Source of the DNA: Rhizophagus irregularis
Lineage: Eukaryota
Direction: 5' to 3'
Assembly (NCBI RefSeq): GCF_026210795.1
Contig: NC_089434.1
Coordinates: 2,046,001-2,110,000, forward strand
Length of the DNA: 64,000 bases
Position numbers: made by a program. Below are positions 9,001-15,000 of the stretch, in pieces. Numbering within the stretch: position 1 is the first letter of the stretch; the number at the start of each line of letters is the position of its first letter.

Positions 9001-12000
9001 CATTTTATATTACTAACGCTATTTATGTCGTGAACCAAGAATGTTGTATGTTGTTCGTTGATTATGTTGTTTGTTAATTATGTTGTTGATTATTAGCTTG
9101 TTCGTTTAATTGTTCGTTCGTTCGTTTATTCGTTCGTTCGACCATGGGAATGCCCGTTCAATGTGGCAACTCTGTAAATTGATGACAGAGGGAATTGGGG
9201 GATCTCATCGGTCACCAATCAGGTACCTGATTGGTGCCTAATTGGTAACTGATTGATGCCTGATTTTTCACTTTTTGACCTGTGCGTATCAACTGCTGAT
9301 ATAATTACTTTTAAAACTAAATAACATATATAATCTTTATTATTAAGTCAAACTAAACTATTTGATCTTTTTAAAATCAATTTAATTTTAAAAAACCTTG
9401 TATTTATTAATTTTATCTAAATGGCAAATTTACTATTTATTTGTTTGAATTTTTGTTATTTTTATTCATCCTTTTTATACTTATCAGATTTCTTATAATT
9501 ATATTTAATATAACTTTATATATAGATAGCATTAAATTATTTTATATTAAATTAAAGAAAAACTATTAATCAGATTTTTGTGATACATTCATAATGTAAT
9601 TTTTTCTAAAAGTATATTCCAAAATTAATCTTACAGATTATATAAAAAGATAATATTCCAGTTAGTGAATCTTATACAAATAAAGTAAAAATCAAATGAA
9701 AAATAAAACTTTCATTATTAATATCATTAAAATTAACAATTAAAATAACTTATATATTCTGTAAAGTTAATAATAAAAAATATTATCATAATGTTAATTA
9801 AATTTTCCAGTTTTATAAATACTTAAAATCAAAGCAAATATATTATTATTTCTGATCTTTTTAATATATTGCTGAGAAAATAGTCTTATTGACACAGTGA
9901 AATATAGAAAAAAAATCAGATAACTGTAATTTCAGCCAACCTCCTGCCAAAATCTATATATATATTGTGTATCAAATGTTGATTTGTGTCAGATGCAGCT
10001 GATACACATTAGATGTTAATCAACACTTAATACGCATCAGTTAATAATTGACAATTGAAGCACATTAGCTGTCATCTAATGCAAGTCAGCTATTATCTGA
10101 TGCAATTTTTTTTAAATACAATTGGTTTCTTTATTTACCAAATTAAATAATTTTATTGCATTAAAAAAAAATTTTTTTTCATTTTAAATTTTTTTTAAAT
10201 AAACAAAAAAATATGACAACACTAAACTATATTTGTTTTAATATCATCGGGAAATTTTTTAAGATGCAGAACTGCAGAGATCTGTAAAATTAGCAGATCT
10301 TTGCATTTTTATGTGAATTTATGCGGAAGTCTGCAATTTTGCAGATTTTCACTTCTTATTTTTTACAAAATTATGCAATAATCTGCAATTTTGCATATTT
10401 CTGATTTTTTATATATGCATTTCTGCGGAAGTCTTTAATTTTGCAGATTTCTGCTTTTTTTTATGTAAATTTATGCAGAAGTATGCGATTTTGCAGATTT
10501 TTACTTTTTTTTTCATTGAAATATCAGTTCAATCTGCAATTTCATCATTTTAATTAACTCTACATTTTAACACTTAAACTTCAGTTTGATTAATTTTAAC
10601 TTGATTTAACATTTAAACTTTGATTAACTCTAACTTGATTTAATACCTAAACTTTTTTAAATAATTTTTTCTATAACATTCTTTAAAGAAAAAAATTTTA
10701 CAAAACTTATATAGAAATAATTTTTTCTACAATACTTTTTACTAAAAAACTTTATGAAATAATTTTTTCTACAACAACTTTTAAAAAATAATCTGTTAAA
10801 GATTCCAAAGAAAAATATTTCTATTATTTTTTAAGCTTCGAAGCTTATCAGATAAATTTTTTTTAAAAAAAATTATTTGCAAGGTTCGGAGTCTTTAAGG
10901 CAACATTCGGCACATAATCTGCAACATGCAGGGAAATCAGAACTAAAAAAGGAGTCATATTCCTTTTTTTTCTTCTTTGATGAATATCAGTTAACGTTCA
11001 GTTTATAAGAACATAATATGTTGTCAATTTTAATTCAGAGGTATATCACCTCTGAAACTTTAATTTTTTTTAGAGAAAAAAAAATTTTTTTATATATTAT
11101 AGGTTCTGGATGGAATTTATCGATGATTTTGAAGGTATACTTACCTCTAAAACTTAATTTATTTTTTTTAAAAAAAAAAATTTTTTTAATATTATATAAG
11201 TTCTGGCTGGAACCTATCAAAGATTTTGGAATTCAGAGGTATACTTACCTCCGAATCTTAATTAATTTTTTTTAAAAAAAAATAAATTTTTTTATATTAT
11301 ATAGGTTCCAGATAGAATCTATCAAAGATATTGGAATTCAGAGGTATGCTTACCTCCGAATCTTAATTAATTTTTTTTAAAAAAAAATATTTTTTTTTAC
11401 ATTATATAAGTTCTGGATGGAACCTATCGATGATTTGAAATTCAGAGGTATGCTTACCTCCGAATCTTAATTTATTTTTTTTAAAAAAAAATATTTTTTA
11501 TTATATTATATAAGTTCCAGATGGAACCTATCGATGATTTTAATTGGAATTCAGAGGTATGCTTACTTCCAAAATTTAATTTATTTTTTTAAAAAAAAAA
11601 AATTTTTTTTTATATTATATATGTTCTGAATGGAACCTATCGATGATTTTGGAATTCAGAGGTATATTAACTTCTGAATCTTTAATTTATTTTTTTAAAA
11701 AAAATAACAATTATTTATTTAACGAACGTCACTAACGTTCATTTTATCAAATTTTTAGGTTCTGGATGCCAAATAATGGCTCTGAACTCTTATTTTGAAG
11801 GTAAAAACCTTCGAATTTTTATTTTTAAATTTTTTATATAATGAACGTTATTAACGTTTATTATTTCTTTTTTTAGGTCCTGGTAGTGTTTACAGTTATC
11901 TGGATAAAATTTTTGTAAATAGATCGGATGAAAAGGATTGAAGGATTTCATCTGGATTATCCATGTTATTAATGGATTATGAGATTATCCAGATCATCCG

Positions 12001-15000
12001 AGCTTTTAGTTCTGGACTCTGGAGGGAGATAATCCTTTTTTTCTTTAGGTCCTTCAGTTCTGAACTTTGGAGATAACTGGTAGGGGACTTTTTTTTAATT
12101 CTTTTTCTTTTGTTTTGTTATTGTTTCATTCTTATTTCTTTTCGCTAATTTCGTTGTTTTTTTTCTTTAGGTTCTTCAGTTTTTGACTTTGAAGATGAAG
12201 GGTGAGTTTTTTTTTATTTTTATTTCCTTTTTATCATTTTGTCTTGTTTCCTTCTGTTAATTTCATTCTTTTTCTTTAATTCTTCAGTTCCCGGACTTTG
12301 GAGACAACAGGTGGGGGTTTTTTTTCAATTTGTCTTGCTTTATTCTTCTAATTGCGTTCATTTTCTTTAGGTTCTTCGATTCCTGGACTTTGAAGACAAC
12401 GGGTGGGTTGTATTTTTTTATTTTTATTTATTTTTTTCATTTTATCTTATTTTCTTCTGCTAATCTTGTTCATTTTCTTTAGGTTCTTTAGTTTTGGACT
12501 TTGGAGATGACAGGTGGGTTTTTTTTATTTTTATTTCTTTTTTTCATTTTATCTTTTTTCCTTCTGCTAATTTCGTTCTTTTTCTCTAGGTTCTTCAGTT
12601 CCTGGACTTAGTGTTTCAATCCGTTTATTCGCAATTCATATCGTGAACAGATATCTGCCCTAATCTTCTGGATTCCCATTTCGAAGGTAAAAAAAACTGA
12701 AATTTTATTGTTTTTTATTTTTATTGTTTCTTATTTTATTTATTATTTTTTAGGTACGGGAATTCAACTATTGAATTTTTTATTTTATTTTTTTTTAACG
12801 AAATGTTTGTTAACATTTTCGTTTCTTTTTTTGTAGATCTGCAGCTTTCCTGGAAGGAATTTCTTTTGAAGGTAACCTTCAAAATTATTTTCTTTAAATG
12901 AAAATGAAACGCTTAGCTAACTTCTTTTGTAAGTACAGGAAACTGAAAGATAAGCCCCGATCTTCAATTTAACAATTTTGAAGTAAAACTTCAAATTTTT
13001 TTTTTTTTTATTTTCCAACGAAATGTTTACTAACATTTCAACTTTCTTTTGTAGTTTTGCGGCTTCCAGTCAAAATAACTGGATTTATAAAATTGGCCAA
13101 CACTACTTTATAGAAAAGTTTCTGGAAAGAACTTCGAAGGTATTCTTTGAAGTTCTTTTAATTTTTTTTAACGAAACATTTGCTAACGTTTTTATTCTTT
13201 TATTGTTGTAAATTTACAGGTTCCTGGAAAGCTCCTTGAACGGAACTTTGAAGGTATTTTTTGAAGTTCTTTTAATTTATTTTTTTTTATTTAACGAAAC
13301 GTTACTAATTAACGTTTCCTTTTTTTAGGTCCATGACTTCTTGGATAAGAACTTCTTTGTAGGTCTGAGTACAGCCTTGTCTTATGCTTGATCCAGTTAC
13401 AGAAATCGATTTTTTATCATCATTCAGTGCTGGTCTTCAGTGGGAGCCTGAGCTTCAGTGGGAGTTGATGCTTCAGCAGAAGCTGAAGCTGAAGCTGGAG
13501 CTGGTGCAAGAGCAGGAGGAGACTTCTTGGATGAGAACTTCAAAGGTATTTTTCGAAGTTTTTTAATTTTTTTGTTTTTTTTAATGAAACTTTACTAACT
13601 TTTTTTATAGGTTTGCAACTTCTCAGAGGTATTGGTTAGGACCTTTGGAATAGTAAGTTTCGAAACTTCAATTATTATTTTATTTTTTAATGAAACTTTA
13701 TTAACGTATTTTCTTTTTGTAGGTCTGCGACTTCTTGGATGATATCTAAAGGGAACTTTGAAGGTATTCTTTGAAGTTCTTTAAAATTTTGTTCTTTTTC
13801 TTAACGAAACGTTACTAACTAATTGAACGTTTTCTACTTTTCTACTTTTTGTAGGTCTACAAGTTTCTGGGCACTTTTTAAATGCAAATTTAAATAATTA
13901 TTTGTTGGAATCGAACCAACTGGAACAATGTCTAAACCATTAACAACAAATAGTAGAGAAAAGAGTAAATTAGCTTTAGTTTTAGTGCATTTGCTAATAA
14001 ATATTATTACTTGTAAATATATCTAAATTAAATAAATTAAGTAAATTAATTGATATTAGTTAAATTGAAGTATTATAAAATTGAAGTATTATTTGTACTA
14101 ATTATTTTAAATTAATTCACAGATTTAATTTTTGAAGATTGGTGCAGAACTTTATTTTCTTGAAGTTCTGCGCAGAAATCATAAAAATTTTTTCTTTGCA
14201 GTATCACGCCAGGATATAAGATCTGCGCAGAAATAATTTCTGAAAATCTGCGCAGATCTGCTCCCTAAAAAATTTTCTGATAATTGCCAATCACTATGAT
14301 ATCAGCTTTCACAATTATTTTCCATTTTTCTGCAATAGCACTTATTACTGTTATAATTTTCTTTACAATTACAAATTGTACTTATGGTTAAACCTATATT
14401 TTAAAGCTATGCAGCCTCTTTAATAGTAATTAGATTTGTAGGTATTGTTTCAAGTTCTGGAAATTAGTTAACATCAAGGGAATCAATTTTTCCTAATGAA
14501 TAGAAAATATTAATAACTTCAAACTGAAACCCTAACTGATATTGGTCATTAATTTTTTCTAGGATTTTGCATAGAAGTATAGGATGGTTAGTACCAAAAC
14601 AGTCAATTTTTGGAACTAAAATTTTTACTAAATTTCCAACTTCATAGTTATTTTTTCTTTTCATTCCTTTATTCATTTAGTTGACTATTTTTTTAGTATA
14701 ATTTTTAAGGTTTTATCAAGTAGCTTCTCTTAATATTCTATGGTTTATAACTTTCTCTTACAGTAAAACTTTATTCGTAATATCAATAAGAATAGGATTA
14801 ATAGAAATAGTAAGCTATTTGAAATTTCATTTTCTTTATTTTTCAAATATATCACTTTATATTAGTTTTGCAAAACCTATAATTCAAATAATAAAAATTT
14901 CATTAAAGATTTCATAAGAAATATTTCATTGTAAAAATATACTATAAAATTACAGATTTTATTAAAAATTTGTCAAAAATCAATAAAAATATCTTTATAA

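Follow-up and report, generated by a model that had tools for sequence, protein, structure and literature searches.

A Transposon Carrying an Array of Intron-Like Units

The stretch of DNA analysed here (the window) spans 64,000 nucleotides of contig NC_089434.1 from Rhizophagus irregularis (positions 2,046,001 to 2,110,000, forward strand). Its GC content ranges from 17 to 49% per 1-kb step, mostly staying below 30%, and it holds intron-bearing genes together with numerous transposon remnants. An element of about 4 kb, located at 10245–14282, encloses array A, a series of about two dozen short intron-like units that form three groups, A1, A2, and A3 (Table 1). The element is very likely a non-autonomous transposon of the PlavakaB type. 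Its array, judging from sequence comparison, may be the relic of a many-intron non-coding transcript that was kept spliceable while the family was active, an interpretation for which the chances seem about even.

The ends of the element are inverted and of the CATCGGG type, and they are flanked by a 2-bp AT duplication (10243–10244 and 14283–14284), which is weak evidence when taken alone, the DNA being 77% AT. Relatives of the element were obtained as ten metagenome contigs (L001–L010) by scanning metagenomes with one A3 donor word. These contigs represent fewer than ten independent elements, since L002 and L006 seem to be one locus found in different samples, as do L009 and L010, and L003 and L007 share parts of their arrays. 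An end starting with CATCGGGAAATTTTTT opens L002, L006, and L007, and its complement closes L003; the related ends in L002/L006, L003, and L007 sit in different flanks. Over 10243–10385, the window is 71% identical to L007. The termini of the young relatives read CATCG..CGATG, and the right end of the window copy reads TGATA. Between the left terminal inverted repeat (TIR) and the array, the subterminal 50-bp repeats are probably binding sites for the transposase complex. A scan of viral contigs with the TIR word pattern gave no matches, and neither did a scan of prokaryote genomes with the branch-hairpin pattern.

Within the array, the ordered splice pattern (donor, branch, polypyrimidine tract, and AG) occurs six times on the + strand of 11030–13870 and never on the − strand, whereas 200 dinucleotide shuffles gave 0.205 on average and never more than 2. 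This pattern demands AG/GT (the slash marking the exon–intron border) and misses the second array of the window, array B, whose donors are C/GT. It is found four times in A3, once in A2, and not at all in A1. Similarly, the signal order of U2 introns (GT, YTAAY branch, pyrimidine tract, and YAG) is present in A3-type units, partly in A2, and not in A1. An A3 unit consists of a donor hairpin, a T tract, a branch hairpin, a second T tract, and YAG, and three such units have folding z-scores of −2.86, −2.84, and −2.14. One A1 unit reaches −1.66, and one A2 unit only −0.20, which indicates that A2 is devoid of hairpins. No structured RNA family of Rfam matches the window at gathering score.

The original prediction described these groups as families amplified one after another by local tandem duplication in one element, with selection on spliceability. 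All three groups do lie inside 10245–14282, and the stems quoted for them are present exactly as given, at 11336 (and again at 11440), 13126, and 13296. The expected excess conservation of the splice dinucleotides holds for the donor GT (44 of 44 letters in 22 donors, against 177/220 on the exon side and 91/132 on the intron side; p ≤ 0.0002), whereas the acceptor AG (43 of 48 letters) is above the exon flanks (p 0.01) but not above the T tract (p 1.0), and in A1 it retains 8 of 12 letters against 53 of 60 in the exon; the window donors and the A3 acceptors were placed by eye, and these counts lean towards the motif. For A2, the proposed GTGAGT and GTGGGT donors were recovered at 12202 and at 12403 and 12514, respectively, but the other two are GTAGGG and GTGGGG, and the TGCTAAT branch word is limited to two of the five introns (12458 and 12565). 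One A2 acceptor, at 12279, has been lost, and A2 has only short and weak matches in the ten loci.

The idea of selection on spliceability is contradicted in A1, the youngest group. This array has a period of 105 bp (6.5 copies, 82% matches), and its 11-bp stem contains one A-C mismatch. It lacks branch hairpins and matches to the ordered pattern, and four of its six acceptors are damaged, the acceptor G being kept in two, with AG displaced by one base in three and missing in one. No match to A1 (11030–11660) was found in the ten metagenome loci.

The A3-type pair at 11705–11877, located between A1 and A2 and not included in the three blocks originally predicted, is homologous to the first units of the related elements. 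It is followed by a stretch unrelated to the units (11878–12038), without a match in the ten loci, which is perhaps a small nested element. At 12754, an acceptor is immediately followed by a donor (AG/GT), which leaves an exon of zero length; a recursive splice site or the product of a deletion are both possible.

Table 1. Features of the transposon enclosing array A and of related donor hairpins (positions in the window unless a contig is named).
Feature	Position	Strand	Evidence
Non-autonomous TIR DNA transposon, very likely PlavakaB type, enclosing the whole of array A	10245–14282	+	Inverted ends, AT on both flanks
Left TIR, starting CATCGGGAAATTTTTT	10245–10281	+	Identical start in L002, L006, and L007, and at the 3' end of L003
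Subterminal 50-bp repeats (4.1 copies), every copy containing a short palindrome	10306–10512	.	Matches in L002, L006, and L007
A1: 6.5 units of ~105 bp; donor in hairpin loop, no branch hairpin	11032–11704	+	Tandem repeat, unit tree
Two A3-type units with branch hairpins	11705–11877	+	72–76% identity to L003, L005, and L007 over ~170 bp
A2: five units of 91–122 bp; GTGAG/GTGGG-type donors, no hairpins	12039–12600	+	Repeats, unit tree, folding
A3: the element-wide unit in about nine decayed copies	12673–13860	+	Matched by all ten loci (L001–L010)
Fragment with Ala/Pro-rich open frame, as an exon inside A3	13394–13507	−	RNA reads; no match in the ten loci
Conserved last segment after the final acceptor	13893–13962	+	91% (L010) and 86% (L005) identity
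Right TIR, decayed; ends in TGATA instead of CGATG	14246–14282	−	Complementarity of 77% to the left end (39 nt)
Donor hairpins extended to GGTA/TACC	L002 2105, 2470; L003 1231; L006 2893; L010 1492 (array orientation); window 11232, 11337, 11441		Donor reads on both strands

Unit Layout in Young Related Arrays

The layout of the units is best appreciated in the young loci, which hold 58 distinct exons of 20–85 nt (mostly 27–65) and 76 distinct introns of 68–89 nt. The last 12 bases of the exon pair with the intron, GTA lies at the 5' side of the loop, and a second hairpin bears the branch word. When donor anchors were located without using GT, 68 of 74 proved to have it, and, after removal of the eight that match the scan word, GTA occupies positions +1 to +3 in all 60 remaining donors, which comprise 35 different loops of 2–16 nt. 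Positions +4 and +5 are variable (29/55 and 29/54), with a G at +5 in 7 of 54. Branch hairpins, located without using AG, are followed by a first AG 14–23 nt later in 78 of 89 cases (two have none within 45 nt), and a pyrimidine precedes this AG in 83 of 87. The commonest branch word is TACTAAC (25/84), whose last four letters also form part of the branch stem, and the −3 position is a pyrimidine in 77 of 84. The splice pattern is strand-specific here as well, with 14, 12, and 5 occurrences on the + strand of L005, L007, and L006, respectively, and none on the − strand of any of them.

Age and History of the Units

Mean pairwise identity is 0.85 for A1, 0.76 for A2, and 0.62 for A3 (the last figure covering a different span), consistent with the different ages originally proposed. 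From these values, the units would have expanded in the order A3, A2, and A1. The unit tree, built from 98 rows and 127 columns, leaves many forks unresolved. It places A1 in a single clade and A2 in another (100/100 each), in agreement with the original prediction, but A3 units are scattered among the metagenome units and form no group of their own. Since A3 also matches all ten loci, sequence comparison identifies it as a unit inherited throughout the element's family and not as a local duplication, with A1 and A2 as later expansions.

The observed/expected ratio of CpG in array A has fallen to background (0.89, against 1.85–2.62 in four young arrays). Array A is an ageing copy, and the selection signal comes from the active lineage of the element rather than from the window locus. 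Inserted copies appear to decay neutrally, since the donors of array B are being lost as expected without selection.

Array B, at 46200–48650, has approximately 17 units with the same layout of donor and branch hairpins, unrelated stems, and C/GTAAGT donors. It is probably part of an element at 45561–52005 whose inverted ends are of an ACTAGT type, unlike those around array A. The donor G of array B belongs to a CpG, and among the 15 donor sites listed, four have changed from CG to CA (and are lost), about five from CG to TG, and one is degenerate, as judged by eye. This is the loss expected of an array that is decaying neutrally, and the AG/GT donors of array A may outlast those of array B simply because they hold no CpG. 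Two copies of an element of about 170 bp are inserted in branch-hairpin loops of array B (~46450–46615 and ~47010–47195). In L004, too, a branch hairpin is the insertion site of a Plavaka-type element, and these coinciding positions suggest that branch hairpins may be insertion hot spots.

A third group of decayed intron-like units, array C, was recognized by eye at 16500–16930, 18040–18250, 18600–18700, 19300–19680, 23150–23560, and 24060–24280. Small nested inverted-repeat elements and a DDE_1/Tc5 transposon interrupt it, and an end similar to the right-hand one of the array B element lies at 24583. Other transposons in the window include a nearly complete non-LTR retrotransposon (34860–42335), whose endonuclease and reverse transcriptase domains are interrupted by stops and frameshifts, and a hAT-like element with a weak DUF659 match (49040–51960), nested beside array B.

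Relationship to Plavaka Transposons

PlavakaB belongs to the CMCT clade, and its described families, which come from Agaricomycotina, have CATCA..TGATG termini and duplications of 2–3 bp (Kojima 2025, PMC12730594). Among the families listed in the supplement of that work, CATCG and CATCT variants also occur, and one family begins with CATCGGGG. The window element agrees with them in its left terminus (CATCGGG), in its right terminus with one change, in the AT found on both sides, and in its subterminal repeats. On the other hand, it has no transposase, and tblastn with 134 Plavaka-related proteins gave no match anywhere in the window. This search also left unsupported a likeness, noticed by eye, between the last segment of array A (minus strand) and the C-terminus of the transposase.

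The protein link comes from L004, in which an array is interrupted by a related end; after this end come the remains of a gene, of which a C2H2 start and a 34-residue tail are left. This tail has 13 protein matches at E values up to 0.001, including Glomeromycota proteins and one unrelated repeat protein, and relatives of the transposase are found in Glomus, Diversispora, and Rhizophagus. One of the tail matches is P0013, and 103 of its 120 relatives contain PF18759, among the matches listed. We take PF18759 to be the Plavaka family; no direct match to it was found in the eight proteins scanned. The link to this domain spans two steps, and the L004 end is closer to the ends of L002/L006 than to that of the window. 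A second, divergently placed gene of L004 (minus strand, 434–1242 and 3–403) has multiple exons, the last of which aligns with the P0013 tail (E 1e-9); it has no Pfam family, no Atlas match at 0.9, and no longer homolog. The very likely assignment of the window element to PlavakaB derives from the fit of its ends and duplication, together with the deleted, probable Plavaka transposase that adjoins the related L004 end.

RNA Reads and Possible Captured Fragments

Raw RNA reads were drawn from four runs with the same species label (at most three samples from two studies, and about one quarter to one third of each run). Over array A they are thin and mostly partial matches from related loci, and 90–95% of the aligned reads continue into unlike sequence. 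In each run, approximately 160–200 reads match the fragment at 13394–13507; they have substitutions in common and loose ends at either side, and the fragment was likely captured from an expressed gene. The last segment of the array, 13893–13962, also matches another expressed RNA, with loose read ends at 13893 and 13948. As both stretches match abundant RNAs that continue into other sequence, 13394–13507 and 13893–13948 are suggested to be captured gene pieces.

Origin of the Stems

The arms of the hairpins change together. Pair −8 of the donor stem is T-A in 34 and C-G in 28 of 68 cases, and the branch stems show 31 compensated double changes among 84, with none of the uncompensated TG/TG or CA/CA kind. 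In L008, two adjacent branch hairpins are exact reverse complements of each other, and for the remaining loops that look inverted, a single point change is an equally good explanation; no inverted hairpin was found among the donor hairpins. Eight of the 75 donor hairpins have a stem that reaches as far as GGTA/TACC, so that they read as donors on both strands (Table 1). Template switching, which can create and repair stems (PMC8794818), may explain a co-variation that is free of RNA-strand bias. Because it can produce such patterns, the stems are not proof of an RNA function, for which the invariant, unpaired GTA is better evidence.

Proposed Mechanism and Alternative Explanations

The preferred reading, in which array A derives from a spliced non-coding RNA, involves several steps. 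A promoter inside the left end would drive transcription on the + strand, and the units would represent introns and very short non-coding exons of a single long RNA that was spliced. The array would have grown by unequal duplication of exon-plus-intron units, first A3, then A2, and finally A1, and its stems would be maintained at least partly by template switching. The well-spliced appearance of the RNA would let it pass as a host transcript and evade RNA-guided silencing. This benefit is favoured because poor splicing marks transposon RNA in Cryptococcus, where stalled spliceosomes have been described to recruit RNA interference (RNAi) (PMC6232588). Escape from silencing is nevertheless the least supported step of the model, and as a proposal of analogy it is rather doubtful.

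Several observations weigh against this reading. No GT..AG joint was found among the joints listed (15 of 59), at low cover; as a control, the expected intron at 4.7 kb of a weakly covered C2H2 zinc-finger gene (4726–5730), with 0–5-fold coverage, was also absent among them. In X19, 30 of 32 reads at 12279 carry an intact acceptor and are unspliced, and come from a related copy. The mismatches of the stems include 17 G-U and 25 A-C (p 0.28) and bear no RNA-strand signature, and the conservation of the exon-side stem letters equals that of GT. In the predicted fold, the 12 bases at the end of the exon (0.71–0.97) and the branch A (0.83) are paired, which could hinder splicing. Moreover, six of the 74 donor anchors are without GT and were set aside (slippage to a false arm immediately before a GT donor accounts for four, one is not within an array, and one is degenerate), and the units are related by duplication, which makes their counts non-independent and inflated by shared descent. 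Finally, no autonomous element carrying an array was found in the window or the ten contigs.

Part of this evidence would be accounted for by neutral, minisatellite-like growth, in which one ordinary exon–intron unit multiplied inside an element that hitch-hikes, its palindromes were perfected by template switching, and the motifs persist only through the youth of the copies. Co-variation without G-U excess, the reverse-complementary L008 hairpins, the known ability of template switching to make and repair stems, and the loss of splice sites in A1 and array B all agree with such growth. It fails, however, to explain why GTA, placed in an unpaired loop that template switching does not protect, is invariant over 35 loops while its neighbours vary, why inverted donor hairpins are missing, and why the unrelated units of array B adopted the same layout; on balance, neutral growth is unlikely, although it is the least unlikely of the alternatives. 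Less probable is an antisense regulator of the transposase. In full-length elements, such an RNA would start in the end that lies downstream of the transposase gene and be transcribed against this gene. The L004 transposase remnant does point to an end nearly identical to that from which the L002/L006 arrays read away, and spliced antisense long non-coding RNAs (lncRNAs) of transposons have been described in Blumeria (PMC10648671), but no stretch of exon or array matches the 134 Plavaka-related proteins in either direction, and an element with both array and transposase was not found among the sequences at hand.

The pairing of the exon end and of the branch A, together with the rarity of G at +5, would fit hairpins that splice poorly on purpose, either stalling the spliceosome to trigger silencing of the element, by the RNAi recruitment reported for Cryptococcus, or acting as a sponge for branch-point or U1 factors. 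Nonetheless, neither GTA nor the first half of the branch word is paired, and the introns vary little in length, so that the units look optimised, and a self-silencing array would be harder to square with the wide spread of the family; this explanation is accordingly about as improbable as the antisense one, if not slightly more so. Still less can be said for the original prediction in its full form, with all three families arising by local tandem duplication under continuing selection on spliceability. The intact donor GTs, the A1 and A2 clades, and the lack of an A1 counterpart in the ten loci speak for it, but A3 is common to all these loci, the A1 acceptors and branch sites are damaged, and the ends and CpGs have decayed, making it improbable. 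A micro-exon gene producing variable repeat proteins by alternative splicing, suggested by the many short exons and strong splice signals, is the most improbable of all. One of six joined exon runs, that of L010, has an open frame longer than expected (2 of 300 shuffles reach it), but the other five are no longer than shuffles, the exon lengths lack a bias to multiples of three (15/18/25 among 58 modulo 3; p 0.26), stops occur in each frame in 25–34 of the 58 exons, and the whole lies inside transposon ends. A protein-coding role of the exons was rejected on these grounds.

Comparison with Known Systems and Significance

The container of array A is known, while the design of its cargo appears to be new. 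No published description of such intron-unit arrays was found in a search that left subscription journals and Repbase outside. In the accessible part of the PlavakaB report, intron arrays are not mentioned for the described families, and the core donor word is absent from one of its supplementary files; the likeness extends to L004, with its Plavaka-type transposase remnant and second divergent gene (PMC12730594). Red-algal Plavaka elements have been described with tandem repeats near an accessory gene (bioRxiv 2025.02.11.637652). Tgm-Express1 and the gene-capturing CACTA elements (PMC1947982) offer another parallel, as gene-less CACTA-related elements with host fragments spliced as extra exons. 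However, the exons and introns of Tgm-Express1 are described as unrelated captured pieces, whereas array A is made mostly of tandem hairpin units, with one or two pieces that look captured. The lncRNAs of Blumeria hordei are likewise non-coding, intron-containing transcripts inside fungal transposons, but they average 2.3 exons, with less than 1.9% having more than five, and tandem intron units or hairpins are not mentioned in the sections available (PMC10648671).

The units of array A also form families of similar, intron-like sequences with secondary structure. In this they resemble introners, introner-like elements, and sister stwintrons, which are families of similar spliceosomal introns with secondary structure that are dispersed singly into host genes. 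Unlike these, in the window and the ten contigs exons were duplicated together with introns, all units stand head to tail within one transposon instead of moving as single introns, and the intron ends are not inverted repeats.

Plavaka elements are prevalent in R. irregularis, and about two-thirds of the repeats of this species are reported as unclassified (PMC11075540); with the present element, one unclassified type is assigned to Plavaka. The arrays are well suited to telling selection on RNA stems apart from template switching, and new introns and captured exons may originate from them. It is conceivable, though unlikely, that gene-less transposons of arbuscular mycorrhizal fungi built intron cassettes independently in several unrelated families, with dozens of perfect mini-introns that present donor and branch point on hairpins, as camouflage against RNA silencing. 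If so, the only product of these cassettes would be the act of splicing itself, and transposon counter-defence would arise from splice signals and not from proteins. Should the units be spliced, the arrays would form a natural experiment on whether introns license the RNA of fungal transposons or give it away, with young, old, and damaged copies as controls.

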